Positions 1,513 through 16,152 of a DNA stretch of 30,280 nucleotides are shown in pieces; positions within the stretch are counted from its first letter, which is position 1; each line of letters begins with the position of its first letter. Location of the stretch: the UHGV virus genome UHGV-0139558, one strand, 5' to 3'. The notes below the pieces were generated by a model. It did no database searches, had not been told where the DNA came from, and was given only the letters and a program-made list of their open reading frames with translations. The translations under genes were made by a program, and so were the position numbers. The stretch comes from a virus.

Positions 1513-1538
1513 TGAGGGGGAGTTTTCCCCCTCATTTT
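1513..1538. terminator. Bidirectional rho-independent terminator between convergent genes
   Basis: Perfect 8-bp stem TGAGGGGG / CCCCCTCA with 6-nt loop, T-run on the plus strand and on the minus strand; the int stop codon lies inside the right arm. Confidence 0.5.
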
Positions 1539-2662
1539 AATTCTAACTTATTCCAATCTTTTCCCCTGTCATCATGGTAACGATCGGTTTGCTGCTGGGT
1601 TTTATGGCCCAGCAGTTTTCTGGTATCTATCCCTTGCTCCTTGTAAAGGCGTTCAGATAAAGATCTTTGTTCATGAAAAGTTGCTGGAGTTCCAGTACCC
1701 CAATCAATTTTTGCCAGATCACGCGCCTTGCTAAAGTTCATCGTTAGTGTATTAGCTTTTACCTGTGCGCCACGTTCAGCCTGTGAGGTTGTGCGAAAAA
1801 AATGTACAAGATATGGACTGACAGCATAGTCACGGCAGCGGGCTACTACATCTCGCAAACTCCAGTTAATCGCATTGAGACGCAGGGAAAGCGGGATGGC
1901 GATTTTGCTCCCAGTTTTTTCCTGGATGACATGGAGATGATCATCCCAAATATCGCTAAATTTCATACGCGAGATATCACCTAACCTCTGACCGGTAACC
2001 AGTGCTAACAGCATGGCATTCCCCATATAACGATGACTGGCATCTGCGATATCAAAGATTTTTTGCCATTCTTCAAGGCTTAACCGTTGTCGGGTAATTT
2101 TTCTTCTGGGCTGTTTGGTCGCTAATGCTGGATTATAGCCAGGAGGGACCTCCCCATAGTGTTGTGCCTCCTTGAATACATCAATTAGAACGGAGCGGAC
2201 TACTTGCGCCATCCTCGGTTGTCCAGCAGTGATATACTCGTCAAGCAATTGTGCTATATCCCTTACATCAACGGATGAAATTAACTTCATTCCTGCTCGT
2301 TCCCTGAGCAAGGATACTGGTTTAGCTTTCTGTTTATAGGTGTTGAGCTTTATATCGCCACTTTTCAGTCTGTCATCCTGGATTGCTTGATAGCGATCTA
2401 ACCAGGTTGACGTTGTGATTGCTTTTCCTTTGCTGGTTGCGATCCTGTCACTGATAGCTAGAATCTGCCGGGTTCTTTGCTCAGCCAGGCGTGTATTGGC
2501 CTCAGTGGCAATAGCAATGGCTTCAGCTTCGTTTGTGCCCAAAGAATGAAACTTCCCGGTCACTGGATGCTTATATCGCCAATAGACTTTATTTACTTTT
2601 CTGCTATAGAGCGGATATAAGTTCGGGACTGAAACATTATTTTTACGTGGTCTGGCTGCCAT
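1532..2662 (-). CDS. int: Tyrosine site-specific integrase, lambda Int family
   Basis: 376 aa; N-terminal arm-binding-like region 'PNLYPLYSRKVNKVYWRYKHPVTGK', C-terminal catalytic region ending '...HEQRSLSERLYKEQ...LLGHKTQQQTDRYHDDRGKDWNKLELK' which parallels lambda Int (R-H-R-Y motifs). 20-bp overlap with xis as in lambda. Confidence 0.9.
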   Translation of the reverse strand: MAARPRKNNVSVPNLYPLYSRKVNKVYWRYKHPVTGKFHSLGTNEAEAIAIATEANTRLAEQRTRQILAISDRIATSKGKAITTSTWLDRYQAIQDDRLKSGDIKLNTYKQKAKPVSLLRERAGMKLISSVDVRDIAQLLDEYITAGQPRMAQVVRSVLIDVFKEAQHYGEVPPGYNPALATKQPRRKITRQRLSLEEWQKIFDIADASHRYMGNAMLLALVTGQRLGDISRMKFSDIWDDHLHVIQEKTGSKIAIPLSLRLNAINWSLRDVVARCRDYAVSPYLVHFFRTTSQAERGAQVKANTLTMNFSKARDLAKIDWGTGTPATFHEQRSLSERLYKEQGIDTRKLLGHKTQQQTDRYHDDRGKDWNKLELK

Positions 2663-6632: not shown

Positions 6633-7100
6633 TTGAAGAACAACTACCCAGGAAAAAAACTTTATGCACTTGTAAAGGAAATTCTTAAAGATGGTGTTAT
6701 TACTGAAGATGAGAGTTTAACTCTACATAAGGCATTAGTAGACTTCACAGGATGTGACTTGGAAAGTGGGGTGGTGGATGGTTTGGCGACCAGGCTGCCT
6801 ATTGATGTAGGGGCTTCGATAGAGTTAGAGGGTAAAACCTATTGTCTTACAGGCACTTTTGTTGCAGGAAAGAGAGCCGTAGTTGAAAATTTGATTAAAA
6901 ATGCTGGTGGGAACATCAGTAGTGGAATTACTCAAAAGTTGGATTTTTTAGTAATTGGGACGCTTTCCTCCCGTGATTGGAAATTCTCTAGTCACGGAAG
7001 GAAGATCGAAAAGGCTATATCTTATAGGGATGATAATGGTGCAAAACTTAAAATTATTTCTGAAGAAATGCTTTTCGATGCATTACCAAGTTCGCGATGA
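6633..7100 (+). CDS. BRCT-domain protein with N-terminal TerB-like half-motif; same frame as upstream ORF, separated by one TAA
   Basis: C-terminal 'GKTYCLTGTF...GKRAVVENLIKNAGGNISSGITQKLDFLVIG...ISEEMLF' matches the BRCT pattern of LigA C-termini. Listed ORF starts at TTG; frame is open back to the TAA at 6591. Confidence 0.5.
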   Translation: MKNNYPGKKLYALVKEILKDGVITEDESLTLHKALVDFTGCDLESGVVDGLATRLPIDVGASIELEGKTYCLTGTFVAGKRAVVENLIKNAGGNISSGITQKLDFLVIGTLSSRDWKFSSHGRKIEKAISYRDDNGAKLKIISEEMLFDALPSSR

Positions 7101-7769
7101 CCAGAATACCCTACCTATAACATGAATTCTGGCTCGTCTATCTTCAAAGGTGAGTATTTCATCTGGGTACTCATCTTTGTTGAAGCTTCTAAGAATCAAG
7201 CCACCGTCAGGTAAGTTGATAAGTATTTTAACCCTTAGCAATACACCATCTCGTACGGCATAAAGATCGCCATCACGAATAGGAACGGTTTGAGAAATAT
7301 CAACGGCAACAAGATCTCCATTATTGAGAACCGGTAATAAACTGTTCCCCCATATTTGTACGATCTTGGCATTAGATGCACATACGCCAGATTTTCTCAA
7401 ATCTGCTCTTCTTAACGGAAACCAGTCAATAGCTGATTCAACTATTTCAGCCAGACATCCGTTACCTGCCGATAACTCGACATCTAAAACAGGAATGTTT
7501 ACGAAAATATCGGGGTCTAATGCGGTGCTTTCTGCTTCTTTTACAACAAGATCAGGTATGGATGCGTTGTCTTCAATACCAAGTTGTAACCACTTTTGTG
7601 ATACACCTAAAACTTTTGCAATTTCTTTAATTTTGCGCGGTTGTAGAGTTTCGCCATTCTCTATTTTGGCTACAGATTGTTGTGAAAGTCCAATTTTTTC
7701 AGCTAGTTGAGCTTGGCTCATGCCAGCTTTCTCTCTACCTATCTTTAATCGTTCTGCCAGTGTTTTCAC
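7083..7769 (-). CDS. cI: CI-like prophage repressor (HTH_XRE + S24 LexA-like peptidase domain)
   Basis: N-terminal HTH 'MSQAQLAEKIGLSQQSVAKIENGE'; C-terminal S24-like fold; GTG start with AGAGGG RBS; divergent from Cro-like gene across operator repeats. Confidence 0.85.
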   Translation of the reverse strand: MKTLAERLKIGREKAGMSQAQLAEKIGLSQQSVAKIENGETLQPRKIKEIAKVLGVSQKWLQLGIEDNASIPDLVVKEAESTALDPDIFVNIPVLDVELSAGNGCLAEIVESAIDWFPLRRADLRKSGVCASNAKIVQIWGNSLLPVLNNGDLVAVDISQTVPIRDGDLYAVRDGVLLRVKILINLPDGGLILRSFNKDEYPDEILTFEDRRARIHVIGRVFWSSRTW

Positions 7770-7796
7770 AACATATCCCTCTCTTTTTTGATGAGG

Positions 7797-7885
7797 TTAC
7801 AACTTTATGTTTTAGCTTTCCAACACCTAAAAGTTGTGGTAAAAGTTGTTAATGTTGTATTCTTGCAGCTCGTAACAACTTAACT
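7797..7885. promoter_or_regulatory. Right operator/promoter region (OR-like; pRM/pR expected here)
   Basis: Repeated half-sites ACAACTTTATGT, AACACCTAAAAGTTGT, AAAAGTTGTTAATGTTGT, GTAACAACTT between divergent cI and cro. Confidence 0.55.
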
Positions 7886-7904
7886 ACCAAAAAAGGAGAA
7901 AGCT

Positions 7905-8153
7905 ATGACACCTGAGCAATTAGCCTTATCGGAGGCAATCGCTCTGGCTGGTGGTCAATCAGAATTGGCTCGGAAGCTCACAGCCAGCAGCGGTCATTTA
8001 GTAAAGCAACAACATGTCTGGAACTGGTTGAACAGAGAAAAGCGTCCCCCTGCAAAGCTCTCGATATTCATTGAAAAGACCACTGGCATATCAAAAGAAA
8101 AATTACGTCCAGATATTTTTCAAAAGATTAAAGATTCATCAGATGAAAAGTAA
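7905..8153 (+). CDS. cro: Cro-like / YdaS-family HTH regulator
   Basis: 82 aa, GGAG RBS; 'AGGQSELARKL...' HTH; position immediately right of OR, divergent from cI. Confidence 0.7.
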   Translation: MTPEQLALSEAIALAGGQSELARKLTASSGHLVKQQHVWNWLNREKRPPAKLSIFIEKTTGISKEKLRPDIFQKIKDSSDEK

Positions 8154-8175
8154 CCACAGTTTTAAGGAGATAGCC

Positions 8176-8733
8176 GTGGGTAAGCATCACTGGAAAATAG
8201 AAAAACAGCCTGAGTGGTACGTGAAAGCTGTCAGAAAAACTATCGCGGCGTTGCCGGGGGGTTACGCTGAAGCCGCTGACTGGCTGGATGTAACAGAGAA
8301 CGCTTTATTCAACCGCCTTCGTGCAGATGGCGATCAGATTTTCCCGCTGGGATGGGCAATGGTTTTACAGCGTGCTGGTGGCACTCACTTCATTGCTGAT
8401 GCTGTGGCGCAGTCTGCAAATGGCGTCTTTGTGTCTCTTCCTGACGTCGAGGATGTGGACAACGCCGATATTAACCAGCGTCTGCTGGAAGTCATTGAAC
8501 AGATCGGCAGTTATTCAAAACAGATTCGTTCAGCAATCGAAGACGGCGTAGTGGAACCGCATGAGAAGACAGCAATTAACGACGAGCTGTATCTCTCAAT
8601 TTCGAAGCTGCAGGAGCATGCAGCACTTGTCTACAAAATTTTTTGCATTTCAGAAAGTAATGACGCCCGCGAGTGTGCAGCTCCGGGCGTCGTGGCGTCG
8701 ATTGCTTCTGGTTGTGGAGAAACTAACGCATGA
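8176..8733 (+). CDS. CII-like / YdaT-like regulatory protein (putative)
   Basis: GTG start with AAGGAG RBS at 6-nt spacing; follows cro as in Rac-type immunity regions. Family call from position and recollection. Confidence 0.45.
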
Positions 8734-9088
8734 ACAGTTTAACAACACACTACCGTCGCTCGCAACTGATTGCGCTTCCTGTACCGGGTGGAAAAGCGAA
8801 GGTGGAATATTGCTATGCAGTGAATGTACCAGGTGACAGGGAAATTGTAACCCACAGTTTTGCAGAGTGGGCTGTGGGTGATTTCAACCGGCAGAAGGAG
8901 ACAGTCCTTTGCGACAAGTTAACCGCTGGTTCAAAGATCACTACGGAGTGCCCGTCAGAGTCATTCGTTGGGAGCCGGAAACACAACGGGTTATCTACCT
9001 CCGCGAAGGTTATGAGCATGAATGCTTCAGTCCGCTCGAACAGTTTCGTCGTAAATTCAGGGAAATAGAGGTCGGTCATGAGCACTAA
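8730..9088 (+). pseudogene. Small early gene with apparent frame switch (frame 0 N-terminal part 8730..about 8900; frame -1 C-terminal part 8882..9088)
   Basis: Frame-0 ORF becomes Ser-rich and low-complexity after about 8900, while the -1 frame gives protein-like '[58 protein letters not shown]' ending at 9088. Confidence 0.3.
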
Positions 9089-10019
9089 ATTAACCGGCTA
9101 TGTATGGGATGGTTGCGCTGCATCAGGCATGAAGTTATCCAGCGTGGCAATTATGGCCCGCCTGGCTGATTTCAGTAATGACGAAGGTGTGTGCTGGCCA
9201 TCAATTGAAACCATTGCCCGTCAGATTGGCGCGGGGATGAGTACCGTCAGAACGGCTATCGCACGGCTGGAAGCAGAAGGCTGGTTAACGCGTAAGGCGC
9301 GTCGCCAGGGTAACCGCAATGCGTCGAATGTTTATCAGCTTAACGTTGCGAAGCTTCAGGCAGCGGCATTTTCTCAACTGTCAGATTCTGACCCGTCAAA
9401 ATCTGACGCATCAAAATCTGACCCGTCAAAATTTGATGCGTCGAAATCTGGCAAAAAAGCGGGTTTTCACCCGTCAGAATCTGGCGGGGATCCGTCAGTA
9501 AAATCAAAACATGATCCGTCAGATAAAAAACCTTCTCGTCCGGACGCTTCGCAACCGGACACGCAGACGGATGAACAGGATTTTTTAACTCGCCATCCTG
9601 ATGCGGTTGTATTCAGCCCTAAAAAGCGCCAGTGGGGGACGCAGGATGATTTGACCTGCGCACAGTGGCTCTGGAAAAAAATCATCGCCCTGTACGAGCA
9701 TGCCGCCGAATGTGACGGCGAGGTGGTTCGTCCCAAAGAACCGAACTGGACAGCCTGGGCAAACGAAATTCGCCTGATGTGTGTGCAGGATGGTCGTACT
9801 CATAAACAAATCTGCGAGATGTACAGCCGCGTCAGTCGCGATCCGTTCTGGTGCCGTAACGTGCTCAGCCCGTCGAAGCTGCGGGAAAAATGGGATGAGC
9901 TTTCCCTGCGCTTATCGCCGTCCGTCAGCACGTACACCGAAAAACGCGAAGACCCGTACTTCAAAGCCAGTTACGACAACGTGGACTACAGCCAGATCCC
10001 AGCAGGATTCAGGGGGTGA
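9078..10019 (+). CDS. Phage replication initiator (O-like; N-terminal HTH, repeat linker, C-terminal domain)
   Basis: GAGG RBS; N-terminal winged-helix-like 'SIETIARQIGAGMSTVRTAIARLEAEGWL'; central pentapeptide repeats SDPSK/SDASK encoded by 15-bp iterons; position after cro/cII-like genes. Confidence 0.65.
   Translation: MSTKLTGYVWDGCAASGMKLSSVAIMARLADFSNDEGVCWPSIETIARQIGAGMSTVRTAIARLEAEGWLTRKARRQGNRNASNVYQLNVAKLQAAAFSQLSDSDPSKSDASKSDPSKFDASKSGKKAGFHPSESGGDPSVKSKHDPSDKKPSRPDASQPDTQTDEQDFLTRHPDAVVFSPKKRQWGTQDDLTCAQWLWKKIIALYEHAAECDGEVVRPKEPNWTAWANEIRLMCVQDGRTHKQICEMYSRVSRDPFWCRNVLSPSKLREKWDELSLRLSPSVSTYTEKREDPYFKASYDNVDYSQIPAGFRG
9384..9530. repeat. Candidate origin of replication: four 15-bp iterons plus CCGTCAGA repeats and an A-rich tract inside the initiator gene
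   Basis: ATCTGAC(C/G)C(G/A)TCAAA repeated 4 times at 15-bp period (about 9386-9445); CCGTCAGA at 9471, 9492, 9516; then AGATAAAAAACC. Confidence 0.5.
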
Positions 10020-10021
10020 TT

Positions 10022-10510
10022 ATGAGTCTTTTGAATGATGTTCAGAAATTCATTGAAGCCCATCCGGGGTGTACTTCCGGAGACATTGCGGATGCTTTTG
10101 CAGGTTACTCACGGCAGCGCGTTCTGCAGTCAGCAAGCAAGTTACGTCAGAGTGGGCGTGTGGCTCACCGTTGTGAAGGAGATACACGCAGACATTTCCC
10201 GCGCCTGACTGAGAGAGCGCAGGAGTCGGAACCACAACCAGTTCGTGAAACCAGACCTGTGCGCAATTTCTATGTCGGCACTAACGATCCCCGGGTGATT
10301 TTGTGCCTGACCCGCCAGGCGGAAGAACTGGAGTCCAGGGGCTTATACCGTCGTGCTGCAACGGTGTGGATGGCGGCATTCCGTGAAAGCCACTCCCAGC
10401 CAGAACGAAACAATTTTCTGGCGCGTCGTGAGCAGTGTTTACGGAAAAGCAGCAAGCGCGCTGTATCGGGTGATGAGTGGTATCTGTCAGGGAATTACGT
10501 GGGGGCTTAA
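10022..10510 (+). CDS. Hypothetical protein, probable replication-module accessory protein
   Basis: Start ATG 5 nt after AGGGGG; stop overlaps the next start (TAATG). No recognisable motif. Confidence 0.45.
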   Translation: MSLLNDVQKFIEAHPGCTSGDIADAFAGYSRQRVLQSASKLRQSGRVAHRCEGDTRRHFPRLTERAQESEPQPVRETRPVRNFYVGTNDPRVILCLTRQAEELESRGLYRRAATVWMAAFRESHSQPERNNFLARREQCLRKSSKRAVSGDEWYLSGNYVGA

Positions 10511-11163
10511 TGAGTAATAAATATTGCCAGGAGCTGGTGGAACTGCGGAACAAACCAGCCCATGAACTGAAGGAAGTGGGTGATCAGTGGCGCACGCCGG
10601 ACAACATTTTCTGGGGAATTAACACCCTGTTTGGCCCGTTTGTTCTGGATCTGTTCACTGACGGTGATAACGCCAAATGTGCCGCGTATTACACGGCGGA
10701 AGACAACGCGCTGGCGCATGACTGGTCAGAACGCCTTGCGGAGCTTAAAGGTGCTGCCTTTGGTAATCCTCCATACAGCCGCGCCAGTCAGCATGAGGGG
10801 CAATACATCACCGGCATGCGTTACATCATGAAACATGCCAGTGCCATGCGTGATAAGGGCGGGCGCTATGTTTTCCTGATCAAAGCTGCCACCAGCGAAG
10901 TGTGGTGGCCGGAAGATGCAGATCATATTGCTTTTATTCGCGGGCGTATTGGTTTTGAGCTGCCTGTCTGGTTTATCCCGAAAGACGAGAAGCAGATACC
11001 GACAGGAGCTTTTTTCTCTGGTGCTATTGCTGTTTTTGACAAGACCTGGAAGGGACCGGCAATCAGCTACATCGGGCGCGATGAACTTGAGGCATGTGGT
11101 GAGGCCTTTCTGGCGCAGGTTCGCCAGCAGGCGGAAAAACTGGTCAGGGAGATGGTGGCATGA
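10510..11163 (+). CDS. Phage DNA N6-adenine methyltransferase (orphan, Dam-like)
   Basis: 'GNPPYS' (N/D-PP-Y/F) catalytic motif; 217 aa; typical Nin-region location. Confidence 0.8.
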   Translation: MSNKYCQELVELRNKPAHELKEVGDQWRTPDNIFWGINTLFGPFVLDLFTDGDNAKCAAYYTAEDNALAHDWSERLAELKGAAFGNPPYSRASQHEGQYITGMRYIMKHASAMRDKGGRYVFLIKAATSEVWWPEDADHIAFIRGRIGFELPVWFIPKDEKQIPTGAFFSGAIAVFDKTWKGPAISYIGRDELEACGEAFLAQVRQQAEKLVREMVA

Positions 11164-11486
11164 CGACATTAACTCAATGCCAGCAGCAGGTGCTGGATAT
11201 GCTGATTTCTTACCAGAAAGAACGAGGCTTCCCGCCAACCAATCAGGAGGTGGCAACCATGCTGGGATACCGTTCAGTGAATGCAGCGGTGGAGCATCTT
11301 CGCGCACTGGAGAAAAAAGGCGTCATCACGATAAAGCGTGGCGTGGCCCGGGGGATAACGCTTCATACCGCGGTGAAGGACGACGACAGCGAGGCTGTCT
11401 GGATTATCCGCTCACTGCTTGCCGGTGAGGAAAACGCCAGGCTGCGTGCAACCCACTGGTTACATGAGAGAGGCCTGAAAGTATGA
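11160..11486 (+). CDS. LexA N-terminal DNA-binding-domain-like protein (no peptidase domain)
   Basis: 'QQQVLDMLISYQKERGFPPTNQEVATMLGYRSVNAAVEHLRALEKKGVITI' parallels LexA winged-HTH '[52 protein letters not shown]'; only 108 aa. Confidence 0.6.
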   Translation: MTTLTQCQQQVLDMLISYQKERGFPPTNQEVATMLGYRSVNAAVEHLRALEKKGVITIKRGVARGITLHTAVKDDDSEAVWIIRSLLAGEENARLRATHWLHERGLKV

Positions 11487-11872
11487 AACTGATCCTGCCT
11501 TTCCCGCCCAGCGTGAATACGTACTGGCGACACCCTAACAAAGGGGCGTTTGCTGGTAAAAGCCTGATAAGCGCGGCGGGGCGCAAATTCCAGAGCGCGG
11601 CGTGCGCAGCAATAGTTGAGCAGTTACGTCGTCTTCCGAAACCAACGTCGGCACCTGCTTCAGTGGAGATCGTGTTGTTTCCTCCGGATAACCGGATCCG
11701 CGATCTGGACAACTATAACAAGGCGCTGTTTGACGCCCTGACCCACGCGGGTGTGTGGGAAGACGACAGTCAGGTGAAAAGAATGCTGGTGGAGTGGGGA
11801 CCGGTTATCCCGGAAGGGAAGGTCGAGATCACTATCAGTAAGTACGAGAAAACGGCGGGTGCAGCCGCCTGA
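11483..11872 (+). CDS. rusA: RusA-family Holliday junction resolvase
   Basis: 'LPFPPSVNTYWRH...RDLDNYNKALFDALTHAGVWEDDSQV' matches the RusA catalytic core (DxD...D). Confidence 0.85.
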   Translation: MKLILPFPPSVNTYWRHPNKGAFAGKSLISAAGRKFQSAACAAIVEQLRRLPKPTSAPASVEIVLFPPDNRIRDLDNYNKALFDALTHAGVWEDDSQVKRMLVEWGPVIPEGKVEITISKYEKTAGAAA

Positions 11873-11891
11873 TCAAGAGGAGAAACGAAGT

Positions 11892-12701
11892 ATGAATAAT
11901 CTGATGGTCATTGATGGTATTGAAGTTCGTCGTGATGCTTATGGGCGTTACAGCCTGAACGATCTGCATCGCGCAGCAGTAGCATCTGGTGCAAATGCCA
12001 GAACCAAGGAGCCAGGAAAGTTTCTTTCCAGCCAACAAACTGTTGAACTTGTTCATGAATTGACCAACACCCAGAATTTGGGTGTTGACCCGGTGAGTGT
12101 GATTCATGGGGGAAATGAACGGGGAACTTATGTCTGCAAGGAACTGGTGTATGCCTATGCAATGTGGATCAGCCCGTCATTCCATCTGAAGGTGATCCGT
12201 ACTTTCGATATGATAACCAGCGCACCGGAAAAATTATCCGGACAGGCTGCTGACAAGATGCAGGCTGGTGTGATTCTGCTGGACTTTATGCGTCGGGAGT
12301 TAAACCTGTCTAACTCATCTGTGCTTGGTGCCTGTCAGAAACTCCAGGAGGCTGTTGGCTTACCGAATCTGGCACCGCGCTATGCCATTGATGCTCCTGC
12401 TGATGCACACGATGGCTCAAGTCGCCCGACACTGTCACTGAGTGCACTGCTGAAACAGTATGGTATCCGCCTGACGGCTAATCAGGCATATCACCAGATG
12501 GTGAAGCTGGGGATCGTCGAGCAGCGCGAACGATACAGCCGTACCGCGATTAACAACATCAAAAAATTCTGGTCGCTGACAGCGAAAGGCTGCATGTTCG
12601 GCAAGAACATCACCAGTCCCGCAAATCCGCGCGAGACGCAGCCGCATTTCTTCGAATCCCGATTCCCTGAGCTGTTAAAGCTGCTCGATACCGTTCATTG
12701 A
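11892..12701 (+). CDS. KilA-N domain protein (antirepressor-like)
   Basis: N-terminal 'IDGIEVRRDAYGRYSLNDLHRA...GTYVCKELVYAYAMWISPSFHLKVIRTF' is a KilA-N/APSES-like fold pattern; ATG with GAGGAG RBS. Confidence 0.65.
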   Translation: MNNLMVIDGIEVRRDAYGRYSLNDLHRAAVASGANARTKEPGKFLSSQQTVELVHELTNTQNLGVDPVSVIHGGNERGTYVCKELVYAYAMWISPSFHLKVIRTFDMITSAPEKLSGQAADKMQAGVILLDFMRRELNLSNSSVLGACQKLQEAVGLPNLAPRYAIDAPADAHDGSSRPTLSLSALLKQYGIRLTANQAYHQMVKLGIVEQRERYSRTAINNIKKFWSLTAKGCMFGKNITSPANPRETQPHFFESRFPELLKLLDTVH

Positions 12702-12702
12702 G

Positions 12703-13698
12703 GTGACCGTGAGAGCACTACTGACCCCTGAAATTGCCCCGCGTATGGGGATCGTATTGTTCAGGCCAGGTTCAGAGCTGATGCCTCTGTTTATGCAGGG
12801 GCGTGTCCTGCTGGAGCCTGAGCCGGAACGTTATTCATCTTTCGCCAGTGGTGCCGTTCCCGCGGCATCACAACCGCTGGCGGATGATCCTGCCGTTCGG
12901 GCCGTGTTCCGCAATGAGGTAGTGATCCGTCGTGCTGGTGGCGTGGAATGTCTTGAAAGCTGGTTACTTCGTGAAAAAGGCTGCCAGTGGCTTCATTCCG
13001 ACTGGCACAGCGAGAACATGACCACAATGCGACACGCGCCGGGCGCAATCCGTCTGTGCTGGCACTGCGATAACCAGTTGCGCGATCAGTTCACGGAACG
13101 GCTGGAATCAATGGCAACGGATAACTGTGCCCGCTGGGTGTTGTCTGTCGTGCGTCTGGATCTCGGTTTTGATGATAGTCACGTTGTGACAATGCCGGAA
13201 CTGTGCTGGTGGCTGATTCGTAATGACCTGGCGGATGCCTTACCGGAAAGTGCAGCCCGTAAGGCACTGAGATTACCGAAGCCTGTTGTGCCATCTGTCA
13301 CCCGGGAAAGTGACCTTGTGCCTTCAGTTCCTGCCACCAGCATCATCCAGGATAAAGCGAAAAAGGTGCTGGTACTGAAAGTGGATCCGGAGTCGCCGGA
13401 GTCTTTTATGTTACGCCCCAAACGTCGCCGCTGGGTTAACGAAAAGTACACGCGCTGGGTTAAGACACAGCCGTGTGCATGTTGTGGAAAGCCTGCTGAT
13501 GATCCCCACCACCTGATAGGTCACGGTCAGGGTGGAATGGGTACAAAAGCGCATGACCTCTTTGTGTTGCCTTTGTGCAGAAAGCATCACGACGAGCTGC
13601 ATGCGGATACCGTGGCATTTGAAGAGAAGTATGGCTCCCAACTGGAGCTGATATTTCGTTTTATCGATCGCGCGCTGGCGATTGGTGTGTTGGCCTGA
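12703..13698 (+). CDS. DUF968 (YdfU-like) protein with C-terminal HNH-like Cys/His cluster
   Basis: 331 aa; C-terminal 'CACCGKPADDPHHL...CRKHHDELH'; GTG start near GAGG. Confidence 0.65.
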   Translation: MTVRALLTPEIAPRMGIVLFRPGSELMPLFMQGRVLLEPEPERYSSFASGAVPAASQPLADDPAVRAVFRNEVVIRRAGGVECLESWLLREKGCQWLHSDWHSENMTTMRHAPGAIRLCWHCDNQLRDQFTERLESMATDNCARWVLSVVRLDLGFDDSHVVTMPELCWWLIRNDLADALPESAARKALRLPKPVVPSVTRESDLVPSVPATSIIQDKAKKVLVLKVDPESPESFMLRPKRRRWVNEKYTRWVKTQPCACCGKPADDPHHLIGHGQGGMGTKAHDLFVLPLCRKHHDELHADTVAFEEKYGSQLELIFRFIDRALAIGVLA

Positions 13699-13715
13699 TT
13701 TGGTGGAGAAAGTTG

Positions 13716-14081
13716 ATGCGTGATATTCAGATGGTTCTGGAGCGTTGGGGAGCATGGGCGGCGAGTGATAGTTCTGGAGTAGACTATTCGCCTATAGCTG
13801 CTGGGTTTAAGGGGCTTCTTCCCTACACAAGCAAAACACGTCAGGCTTGTTCAGATAGTGATGCATTAATTATTGAAGGTTGTCTTGCTCGTCTAAAGCA
13901 AAAAAAGCCAGATGAGCACTCGCTGCTTGTGGCACATTATTTATACAGAATATCCAAGCGTAAGATTGCAAAGGTGCGTGGAAAGGATGAAAAATTGGTA
14001 CGCATAGAAATACAACTAGCTGAAGGATTTATTGATGGTTGCCTTTCAATGTTGGATGTTAACCTTGAAATGGACGCTTAG
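13716..14081 (+). CDS. Q: Late-gene antiterminator Q
   Basis: Begins 'MRDIQMVLERWGAWAA...AAGFKGL' as in enterobacterial Q/Quu antiterminators; GGAG RBS; sits upstream of the lysis cassette. Confidence 0.7.
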   Translation: MRDIQMVLERWGAWAASDSSGVDYSPIAAGFKGLLPYTSKTRQACSDSDALIIEGCLARLKQKKPDEHSLLVAHYLYRISKRKIAKVRGKDEKLVRIEIQLAEGFIDGCLSMLDVNLEMDA

Positions 14082-14116
14082 GGTTGCACAGGTTGGCCCC
14101 ATATGAGGCCAACCTG

Positions 14117-14578
14117 TCACAAGTGGGGGAAGATTTTTCGTAACACTAACCAACACCTTCCGAAGGTATATAGCGAAATTATAAGGGAGGATAAGCCTAA
14201 CAGTATGAATAGGAAATCAATAGGTTTGCCCGCAACAATAACATCATCTGGTAGAAACATCGCTATCAATGGAAATATACATGCGACGATGAGAGTTAAC
14301 CCTGTTGAAAGTAATCGATTTACCAGAGTTGGTAACACGTTGTTTTGCTTAAGGGCATTAATTGCTCCTTCCTTATCGCTGTTTGCACTACTAAATATAG
14401 ATATTGCAGCCAGAACAAAACCAAACAGGATGCCTGATATAGTCGAGAGCACCCCCGCTGTTGTGAGTACGTCAGCATGCTTCATCGGTTTAAACAGTTT
14501 TGTCGCTGCATAGGTCAACAGAATCCAGAGGACGCATTTCCAGAGAAAAGTGGCTAATTCTCTCATTGTGTCCTCCAT
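14117..14578 (-). CDS. Polytopic membrane protein (4 predicted TM helices), second gene of cargo operon (candidate membrane effector)
   Basis: Hydrophobic stretches 'FLWKCVLWILLTYAATKLF', 'VLTTAGVLSTISGILFGFVLAAISIF', 'LSTGLTLIVACIFPLIAMFL', 'IDFLFILLGLSSLIISLYTF'. Confidence 0.55.
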   Translation of the reverse strand: MEDTMRELATFLWKCVLWILLTYAATKLFKPMKHADVLTTAGVLSTISGILFGFVLAAISIFSSANSDKEGAINALKQNNVLPTLVNRLLSTGLTLIVACIFPLIAMFLPDDVIVAGKPIDFLFILLGLSSLIISLYTFGRCWLVLRKIFPHL

Positions 14579-14587
14579 GCTTGGTTA

Positions 14588-15529
14588 TTAGTCTCTGCTA
14601 GCGAGCTCATACTGTGCAAGATAGTTCGCGTTATCAATTTTAGCAGATATCATCGCCGTTCTGATATCAGAATCGGATGGATAACCGCTTTTGACAATGA
14701 TTGTCTTTGTACTGACCAATACTTGGTCAAGTAGACTTTTGGGCGTTCTATTGGATGGCTCTGTTACATCAATTTTTTTAATTTTTAGACCTCCAGAACC
14801 TTTTGGAAAAAGTTCAAGTAGTTCCTTAATAGCATCGGTGACAGAAGTTTTTAGATAGTTAAAACCTTGTTTTTTCGGGCGAATCCGACCTCGCATATTT
14901 AATCTTAGATGCGACCCGCCCATACCAACAACCATGTCAATAATTTCATTAGCTAAAGGGTTTTTAATCTTATAATTAGCTTTGTTAAAGTTTCTTGGAG
15001 CAGCAACTATAAGATCGAAACTACGTAGGATATTTCCGTCCTCAAGCAGTTCCTTCATGCTCTCTTGTTTCCAAATGGCTTCAAAAGTGACGCTTTTTAA
15101 ATCAGTTTTGTTATACAAAATGAATGCCAGATCATTTACTTTGGGCCCTATATGGTTGAGGGTCATAGCTAATAAGTCCGTTTCGTAGTAATAGATAAAA
15201 TATGTTCTTTCAACTACAGAATCTTTATCATTTAAAGGAATTGTTCTCTCACTACCTGTAGCATCCTCGATGAACGGTAGTAGGCATTCCCTTCTCCACG
15301 ATACGTAACCAAAGTAACATTGCAGTGTGGTATCTTTTTGAAGAATAACTAACTTTAACCCTCGATTTGGGGTGTCTGTTGTGTAAGTTATTGGAAAAGT
15401 TACAGTATCTGCTGTGGTCATTTGCTCAAAGGCTAGTTTTGCAGCAGATGTGCCATCTTTTTTGCTTCCATTACCAGTGAAAAAACCAACTCTCACTCGC
15501 CTAGTTTTATTCTTATTTTCTGTACTCAT
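14588..15529 (-). CDS. Hypothetical 313-aa soluble protein, first gene of reverse-oriented AT-rich cargo operon (candidate defense/exclusion component)
   Basis: Long ORF in a locally AT-rich segment between Q and the holin gene; no recognisable catalytic motif; 9-nt gap to downstream membrane gene. Confidence 0.55.
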   Translation of the reverse strand: MSTENKNKTRRVRVGFFTGNGSKKDGTSAAKLAFEQMTTADTVTFPITYTTDTPNRGLKLVILQKDTTLQCYFGYVSWRRECLLPFIEDATGSERTIPLNDKDSVVERTYFIYYYETDLLAMTLNHIGPKVNDLAFILYNKTDLKSVTFEAIWKQESMKELLEDGNILRSFDLIVAAPRNFNKANYKIKNPLANEIIDMVVGMGGSHLRLNMRGRIRPKKQGFNYLKTSVTDAIKELLELFPKGSGGLKIKKIDVTEPSNRTPKSLLDQVLVSTKTIIVKSGYPSDSDIRTAMISAKIDNANYLAQYELASRD

Positions 15530-15651
15530 TATCGATCCGAAATAATTTTAGCAACCGTGTGAAAAATACAACAAAAAAAAGAGGAAATCATTAGCGCGGT
15601 CCGCAAAAAACATTGTAATCTGTTAAGAGTGGTTACTTCGCCACACAGCTT

Positions 15652-15680
15652 AAACCCGCCGTCGAGCGGGTTTTGTCGTT
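15652..15680 (+). terminator. Candidate late-region terminator (tR'-like) upstream of lysis genes
   Basis: Stem AAACCCGC / GCGGGTTT, loop CGTCGA, then TTTTGTCGTTTC; lies in a 290-bp noncoding region before the holin gene. Confidence 0.4.
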
Positions 15681-15825
15681 TCTGTGGCTGGGGATTCGTT
15701 GGTCCTGGCCTATTCCGCAGTTCTCCATCGGTTCGGCTTCTTTGATGTTTCCGCTTCTGATTTGCGGTACATGATGTTCCCTCAATTTGCACCTGCTGTA
15801 TCAGCGAGGTGAGAGATAACTACAA

Positions 15826-16152
15826 ATGCCTCATAACCCAAATACCTGGCTGGAGTTGGTCCAGAGCTGGTGGCGTGGAGACACACCGCTGGGCGCAGTG
15901 ATTATGTCGATTGTTATGGCTGGTTTGCGCATTGCCTATTTTGGCGGTGGTGGTGGCTGGAAGCGAAAAACACTCGAAATTCTACTCTGTGGCGCTCTGA
16001 CGCTGACTTTTGCATCCGCTCTTGAGTATGTCGGATGGCCTAAATCGCTTTCTGTTGCCATTGGTGGTGGGGTGGGGCTGATCGGTGTCGATGCTATTCG
16101 TGGGGCTGCAATGAGAGTAATCGGTAATAAGTTTGGTGGCTCTAAGGAGTAA
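15826..16152 (+). CDS. S: Holin (lambda S-like, class I)
   Basis: 108 aa, hydrophobic helices and charged C-terminus; immediately upstream of R endolysin. Confidence 0.7.
   Translation: MPHNPNTWLELVQSWWRGDTPLGAVIMSIVMAGLRIAYFGGGGGWKRKTLEILLCGALTLTFASALEYVGWPKSLSVAIGGGVGLIGVDAIRGAAMRVIGNKFGGSKE

Follow-up and report, generated by a model that had tools for sequence, protein, structure and literature searches.

The window analysed here is the whole 30,280-nt stretch of UHGV virus genome UHGV-0139558, a lambdoid prophage, and the gene in question is a + strand open reading frame (ORF) at 11160-11486, from an ATG start to a TGA stop, whose 108-amino-acid (aa) product carries a LexA-type DNA-binding domain (DBD) and is called the LexA-DBD protein below. 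The ORF has its own Shine-Dalgarno sequence and lies in a conserved nin-region cassette, with lysis and morphogenesis genes downstream of the antiterminator gene Q (Table 1). It overlaps both of its neighbours by ATGA junctions, which indicate translational coupling to Dam and to RusA. Scanning the + strand, we found no promoter-like site in 7000-16000 and no terminator-like site in 8700-13385, which places the gene on the delayed-early rightward (nin) transcript; by analogy with lambda, the protein would be produced after induction or infection.

We compared the 108-aa protein with domain, sequence and structure databases, and these comparisons revealed an N-terminal head of LexA type. Residues 1-65 aligned in Pfam to all 65 positions of PF01726 (LexA_DNA_bind; E=3e-19, 69 bits against a cutoff of 23.7 bits), and the top PDB sequence matches were E. 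coli LexA throughout (1lea, 1jhh, 3jso; E ~1e-15). An AlphaFold model of the single chain, made from a 35-sequence family alignment, had a mean predicted local distance difference test score (pLDDT) of 83.8 and a predicted template modelling score (pTM) of 0.57, and its head superposed at 0.9 Å, with 50-51% identity, on the LexA N-terminal domain in the LexA-operator complex 3jso. The E. coli LexA sequence used for alignment is consistent with the PDB alignments over residues 2-86. We consider it very probable that the protein is a sequence-specific DNA-binding regulator using a LexA-type winged helix.

What follows the head is not a LexA C-terminus. Pfam gave no match to the S24 peptidase (PF00717) in the 108-aa protein, and the NCBIfam lexA equivalog model TIGR00498 aligned only over model positions 1-91 of 203, scoring 69.6 bits against a cutoff of 110.95. 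Since the RusA start at 11483 overlaps the LexA-DBD stop, there is also no space for a lost peptidase domain. The initial annotation, which had matched the protein by eye to the LexA N-terminal winged helix-turn-helix (HTH) and remarked on the missing S24 autocleavage domain, was thus right on both points, and its coordinates and length agree exactly with the ORF list; its description of a LexA DNA-binding domain fits the head and omits a conserved two-helix tail (residues 78-108). The same 108-aa gene appears in GenBank under protease-implying names (AB285204 from the cdtI phage, KF030445, LR595868, LR595862 and MT225100: "RecA-mediated autopeptidases", "SOS-response repressor and protease LexA", "LexA repressor"). 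Labels such as "LexA repressor/protease" or "RecA-mediated autopeptidase" thus misname the gene, whose product has no protease domain.

The tail is joined to the head by an acidic linker of 0-71% identity across the family. Its two helices were modelled at pLDDT ~87-88 and follow the family consensus EAVxLLRALLxxExxARxRAxxxLxxRG, in which A97 and L101 are invariant. No significant Pfam family was found for the tail (best, the NIL domain at E=0.0047, below cutoff), and the Pfam and PDB comparisons gave neither a PDB match nor a known interaction motif. Broad hydrophobic stripes run along both helices, and the placement of the tail relative to the head is uncertain in the model (pTM 0.57), from which we infer that the tail would be satisfied either by dimerisation or by a partner. 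Within the tail, A88-G89 aligned by HMMER with A84-G85 of the LexA cleavage site VAA/GE; there is no catalytic domain present to cleave it, and an Ala-Gly self-cleavage site within a cleavage-site loop was not found in the protein. We also considered the string LLAGE as a retained LexA cleavage site or pseudo-substrate and rejected it, as it occurs in the E. coli subfamily only and is helical in the model.

Table 1. Features of the LexA-DBD gene and of the surrounding prophage (window coordinates).
Feature	Position	Strand	Basis or detail
Integrase	1532-2662	-	
CI repressor	7083-7769	-	HTH_3 + S24
Cro-like gene	7905-8153		
CII-like gene	8071-8733		
O-like replication gene	9078-10019		
PerC	10016-10510		
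Conserved nin-region cassette (Dam, LexA-DBD, RusA, KilA-N, DUF968/HNH, Q)	10477..14081	+	Pfam
Dam-type methylase	10477-11163	+	
Shine-Dalgarno AGGGAG	11146-11151	+	8 nt 5' of LexA-DBD start; read from sequence
ATGA overlap, Dam stop (11161-11163) and LexA-DBD ATG (11160-11162)	within 11146..11163	+	Sequence
Coding sequence, LexA-DBD-plus-tail protein	11160..11486 including stop codon	+	ORF list, PF01726, PHROG 362, mEp460 gp46 match
LexA-type winged HTH, residues 1-68	11160..11363	+	H1 6-22, H2 28-35, H3 40-52, strands 56-58, 66-68
Recognition helix SVNAAVEHLRALEK, residues 39-52	11274..11315	+	HMMER alignment to 1lea/1jhh
Acidic variable linker HTAVKDDDS, residues 69-77	11364..11390	+	Mean pLDDT 62 in block 71-80
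Family-specific two-helix tail, residues 78-108	11391..11483	+	Conserved pattern; helices 75-88, 93-103
ATGA overlap, LexA-DBD stop and RusA start	11483..11486	+	Sequence; RusA ORF 11483..11872, PF05866
RusA	11483-11872	+	PF05866
KilA-N protein, 280 aa	11859-12701		
DUF968/HNH-like	12703-13698		
Antiterminator Q	13713-14081		

Head and tail travel together through a large family. PHROG 362 matched over the full length, tail included (residues 1-108 against 1-106 of 106; E=6e-59), and the gene's place in the nin region, between the replication genes and Q and in the order Dam-LexA-DBD-RusA seen also in mEp460, is the usual position of that family. The mEp460 cassette, in which the gene product is gp46 ("LexA DNA binding domain protein"), is 98.5% identical to that of the window in nucleotides, and across mEp460, SfV (orf42), SfII, the cdtI phage and many Stx2a/Stx2c phages the cassette identity is 95-98.5%, with protein identities of 96-99% to these catalogued phage copies; the gene itself was 98-100% identical to mEp460 gp46, SfV orf42 and the copies in Stx2 phages, and among Stx phages the family has been catalogued as pham 237 (PMC8136144). 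Of 5426 complete E. coli genomes, 2233 carry the gene at ~90% identity or more, in up to 4 copies each, and the ORF is intact at no less than 80% coverage in 2222 of the 5426. A profile search brought in members 40-60% identical, 105-135 aa long and with both head and tail, from Cronobacter, Klebsiella, Enterobacter, Salmonella, Citrobacter, Atlantibacter, Kosakonia and Hafnia; length and motifs are conserved across at least eight enterobacterial genera. Comparing 35 members that span 40-95% identity, we found 15 invariant positions (S39, N41, K53, R64 and G65 are invariant) and a mean column identity of 41%. Five metagenomic proteins of 160-220 aa (P0131, P0151, P0154, P0159, P0164) have two tandem LexA-type DNA-binding domains without a peptidase and would be single-chain pseudo-dimers.

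Such breadth bears on whether the gene does anything at all. A functionless remnant of a captured lexA, drifting in prophages, would fit the many frameshifted or truncated database copies (e.g., P0021, P0036, P0055, P0067, P0117) and the records that still label the gene "protease" or "autopeptidase". We regard this as very improbable, since intact copies of constant length (105-135 aa) occur in Escherichia, Shigella, Salmonella, Citrobacter, Cronobacter, Klebsiella, Enterobacter, Atlantibacter, Kosakonia and Hafnia, the 15 invariant positions and 41% mean column identity persist among them, viable isolated phages carry the gene, its Shine-Dalgarno sequence is good and its translation coupled, and the conserved added tail is not expected from simple truncation.

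The reading that we favour, at a rough probability of 0.4, is that the protein acts as a non-cleavable LexA surrogate, which would bind sites of the SOS-box type and restore repression once host LexA has been cleaved. In this proposal the protein, made only after induction or infection when host LexA is destroyed, would bind CTGT-type (SOS-box-like) operators as a dimer joined by its hairpin tail, and because RecA* could not inactivate it, LexA-controlled promoters would be re-repressed during lytic growth; possible targets are host SOS genes, LexA-controlled modules of co-resident prophages and colicin operons. Several observations speak for it, among them the LexA fold of the head, the missing peptidase, the place in the early operon and the many intact copies across genomes and genera. 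For CI and LexA of S. aureus, N-terminal fragments remain active as repressors unless cleared by ClpX(P) (PMC10584840), which makes a surrogate mechanistically reasonable, and the prophage carries its own RecA-cleavable CI repressor. Relatives of the gene have SOS-themed neighbours, namely a dinI gene with an SOS box in Klebsiella and a phage recA with an SOS-like box upstream.

The recognition helix gives a further indication. PMC3091678 names S39, N41, A42, E44 and E45 as LexA contacts to DNA, and of these five the LexA-DBD protein keeps four (S39, N41, A42, E45) and has valine in place of E44, so that its helix reads SVNAAVEHL versus SPNAAEEHL in E. coli LexA. A42 is kept in 29 of the 35 family members. 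The pattern of conservation also favours the surrogate: between genera, the HTH core (residues 23-53) is best conserved (55-77%), and helix 1 and the tail (the latter 23-52%) are the least conserved regions. The nearest named full-length LexAs are beta/gamma-proteobacterial (Burkholderiales and Halothiobacillaceae). That lineage uses the E. coli-type CTGT-N8-ACAG box. Together, the kept contacts and the lineage of the nearest LexAs make the E. coli subfamily a good candidate for CTGT recognition, and for the family as a whole the same specificity is less certain.

Against the surrogate reading we weighed several results. Beyond the valine at position 44, E45 is present in only 16 of the 35 members (otherwise D in 9, L in 6, T in 2, and G and A in 1 each), the abundant Klebsiella subfamily being among those in which it is replaced, and with E44 changed and E45 replaced in 19/35 the whole family may not share LexA specificity. 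The window held no exact CTGT-N8-ACAG match, and in a search with a 20-bp position weight matrix (PWM) built from E. coli boxes, its best score was 10.7, whereas the weakest of the training boxes scored 12.8 and shuffled sequences reached a mean maximum of 11.3. Divergence points the same way: comparing window 10477-13698 with loci L005, L008 and L009, we found the LexA-DBD protein to be the fastest-diverging of the cassette, at 48-54% identity, where RusA reaches 69-85%, Dam 70-81% and DUF968 65-85%; such divergence is unexpected of a protein aimed at an invariant host site. Tail-mediated dimerisation is itself only inferred; the tail has no known relative, and the model leaves the placement of the two modules uncertain (pTM 0.57). 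Our full-text literature search for functional studies of the PHROG 362 family returned catalogue mentions and no published functional study of these LexA-DBD proteins, and the one characterised precedent, GIL01 gp6, does not mimic LexA (PMC6182141).

The search for sites in the window was otherwise equally negative. One-mismatch versions of CTGT-N8-ACAG numbered 13 versus 9.4 expected, which is no enrichment, and after the exact, one-mismatch and PWM searches we rejected SOS boxes in the window. An inverted arrangement, ACAG-N13-CTGT, occurred 4 times versus 0.37 expected; we treated it as chance, the sites lying in late coding regions and being otherwise unlike one another. Lacking an SOS box in the window, the protein, if it recognises such boxes, would find its targets in the host chromosome, on other elements or in prophage parts outside the 30-kb window, with chromosomal sites or other elements the most likely. 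The initial annotation's suggestion of non-cleavable SOS-box binding therefore survives in part: the LexA fold, four of five contacts and the missing catalytic domain support it, and the absence of a window SOS box, the variable E45 and the gp6 precedent count against it. The decoy or antirepressor role that it offered as an alternative found no specific support; the phage CI is an ordinary cleavable HTH_3 plus S24 repressor that needs no antirepressor.

The same variability invites a second interpretation, in which the protein is a LexA-derived phage transcription factor whose specificity has drifted to an operator of its own, on the phage or in the host, where it would act as repressor or activator and tune the timing of phage genes. 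Precedent exists in GIL01 gp6, a truncated LexA homologue of 66 aa whose binding site at the late promoter P3 is GaCACAn nTGTGaC and which activates that promoter (PMC6182141). LexA-DBDs that form a protein by themselves, of 65-150 aa, are found widely among unrelated phages (PHROGs 24920, 3502, 29443). The recognition helix is variable at positions 44 and 45 from one family member to another, and the rate at which the gene diverges is roughly double that of the adjacent genes, a behaviour often seen in specificity determinants. Yet no half-site and spacing combination recurs in the 30-kb window as a palindromic operator, nor is there a repeated operator-like site, and CTGT/ACAG pairs at other spacings gave only dissimilar sites in coding regions. 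The recognition helix of the E. coli subfamily is, moreover, nearly identical to that of host LexA, unlike that of gp6, to which the protein has no sequence relationship, and Q already supplies lambdoid late transcription. We hold this interpretation, the chief rival of the surrogate reading, to be possible but unlikely.

SOS boxes do occur around the gene in some relatives. In mEp460, two strong boxes lie 5' of a dinI-like gene, another where a methylase gene starts and a further one in the repressor gene. Near-perfect boxes lie within the coding sequences of S24-type CI-like repressors in mEp460 (L001:2306-2325, TACTGTTTTTACATACAGTA, PWM 25.3) and in a metagenome phage (L009:836-855, TACTGTTTATAAATACAGTA, PWM 26.6), ~180-210 nt from the gene starts; the CI gene of the window has none. 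Klebsiella loci (L002:5362-5960, also L003 and L004) have a box, TACTGTTTATTTATACAGTA (PWM 27.5), 40 nt 5' of a dinI homologue, and this strong box overlaps the dinI promoter of a dinI-orf96-LexA-DBD string whose gaps are short and free of + strand terminator-like sites; one stem lies immediately inside the LexA-DBD coding start. From this layout the Klebsiella LexA-DBD gene may be SOS-inducible from a repressed prophage. Such boxes do not accompany the gene everywhere, since the Cronobacter and Salmonella loci have none within 6 kb, and tblastn found no DinI homologue in the window of the kind present in Klebsiella prophages and mEp460.

Gene order raises a third possibility, that the protein is an adaptor whose tail recruits a partner such as RusA, the DUF968/HNH-like protein or an SOS protein like RecA, with the head tethering this partner to DNA, or that it titrates a host factor. 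Distant relatives in Cronobacter, Salmonella and a metagenome phage keep the order methylase(s), LexA-DBD, RusA, KilA-N or Rha/ANT, DUF968 and Q, so that strict order and coupling with RusA extend from E. coli to all three; the gene after RusA encodes a KilA-N protein in the window and a pRha/ANT protein in Cronobacter (L005:6726-7451) and the metagenome phage (L009). Klebsiella prophages have dinI, orf96, LexA-DBD, a 67-aa ORF and DUF968, with Dam and RusA absent. DUF968 lies within two genes downstream in 4 of 5 distinct contexts, including that of Klebsiella without RusA and Dam; in the fifth (L009) the contig ends inside the gene at the DUF968 position, for which Pfam gave no call. One contig even fuses the LexA-DBD in frame to the C-terminal HNH half of DUF968 (P0157), and the tail, which the model does not hold at a set orientation to the head (pTM 0.57), evolves fast yet retains its hydrophobic pattern. 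This fusion is, however, a single sequence on a single contig, from a prophage whose recA is split; it lacks the tail and probably arose by deletion. Synteny in the nin region is common among functionally unrelated genes, and no known interaction motif was found in the tail. We judge an adaptor role improbable. On the contig concerned (L012:4529-6723, a metagenome prophage), the phage recA is broken into two ORFs and preceded by an SOS-like box (PWM 17.6); a 77-aa ORF comes next and then the fusion protein of 240 aa.

Other features of the prophage were recorded alongside. A 155-aa BRCT-domain protein (PF00533, E=8.5e-6) is encoded at 6633-7100, adjoining the CI repressor gene, and Cronobacter loci L005 and L007 have a BRCT-like ORF at the matching position. 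By the integrase, at 31-1508, lies the 3' part of an AAA_15/AAA_21 ATPase gene truncated by the window start, with top PADLOC matches to PD-T4-4_A, NsnB and AriA (E down to 9e-20), followed by a 188-aa ORF without a family; the two are a candidate anti-phage defence pair at or just beyond the prophage end. Klebsiella loci have AAA_15 plus DUF4435 at one locus end, several genes 5' of the LexA-DBD gene. For the 108-aa protein itself, PADLOC gave no meaningful defence-system match, with one weak match to a CARF model (E=3.7e-4). A perfect 28-bp hyphenated palindrome, CAGGTTGGCC-CCATATGA-GGCCAACCTG, at 14089-14116 starts in the 21-nt gap after the Q stop codon and extends into the next ORF. Within the O-like replication gene, the protein has a repetitive stretch, SDSDPSKSDASKSDPSKFDASKS (DNA 9330-9520), with an inverted repeat GTCAGATT...AATCTGAC at 9380, and these repeats look like origin iterons.

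Carried to its full extent, the surrogate reading describes a phage SOS off-switch, a RecA-insensitive LexA surrogate, dimerised by a helical hairpin not described before, that would re-close SOS boxes after induction and be present in ~40% of complete E. coli genomes, those of strains harbouring Stx2 prophages among them; we think this full version unlikely. Were it true, the switch would hold down SOS mutagenesis and the release of colicin, as well as LexA-controlled induction modules in rival prophages, and its Klebsiella version may come from an SOS-box-controlled dinI operon. Re-repression of SOS boxes would mean that many E. coli, Shigella, Salmonella and Klebsiella lysogens bear a RecA-insensitive SOS brake, with possible effects on the mutagenesis that antibiotics induce, on how Shiga-toxin and other prophages are co-induced, and on colicin release. 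If the protein were to act at an operator of its own, it would be a second, independently evolved private phage regulator made from a LexA head, after GIL01 gp6.

Set beside E. coli LexA, the protein shares the N-terminal winged HTH (~50% identity, root-mean-square deviation 0.9 Å), the recognition-helix residues S39, N41, A42, E45 and H46 and the wing residues R64 and G65. Unlike LexA, it is without the S24 peptidase/dimerisation domain and the Ser119/Lys156 dyad and ends in the two-helix tail, and its gene is phage-encoded in a nin operon, whereas chromosomal lexA is autoregulated. Measured against LexA membership (TIGR00498/COG1974), it has the PF01726 head but neither the S24 domain with its Ser-Lys dyad nor a score at the equivalog cutoff. 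With the LexA fragment of residues 1-84 and N-terminal fragments of CI it has in common a DNA-binding head alone (PMC10584840; PMC3159453). It differs from these fragments in being genetically encoded, as what would be a stable product, and in its extra conserved tail. Its end is ...GLKV and not the ...VAA that cleavage exposes in LexA and that ClpX recognises.

GIL01 gp6 of a Bacillus phage resembles the LexA-DBD protein in kind only, as a phage LexA-type DBD without a catalytic domain encoded by an early-operon gene, and it is made from that operon after SOS induction (PMC6182141). BLASTP gave no alignment between the two at E<=100, which indicates independent acquisition; gp6 nevertheless shows that a LexA head can be put to a new use. 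At 66 aa, gp6 has no tail, and it is a transcriptional activator with a palindromic site of its own. Its recognition helix (SHKTAHRYL) is unlike the one in B. subtilis LexA, taken here as a stand-in for the host LexA, and its essential K38 has no counterpart in the corresponding LexA-DBD region (SVNAAVEH), which contains no lysine. A palindromic operator over a late-promoter -35, as for gp6, was not found in the window (no recurrent palindrome, no SOS-like site), where late transcription is Q-dependent, though a lone site could have gone unrecognised. GIL01 gp7, Listeria phage AriS and prophage DinI homologues are likewise phage proteins that alter the host LexA/RecA circuit (PMC6182141, PMC9043618), the ANT/KilAC domain of AriS down-regulating the SOS response (PMC9043618). 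These act through protein-protein contacts (gp7 with LexA, DinI with RecA, AriS via ANT/KilAC) and none is a LexA DBD homologue; DinI genes adjoin the LexA-DBD gene in Klebsiella prophages. A truncated phage LexA homologue is thus a known kind of object, and this one is already catalogued and very common in E. coli: PHROG 362, or the NCBI "LexA family transcriptional regulator", is its own family, catalogued by domain content only, from which it does not differ and with which it shares the same flanking genes.

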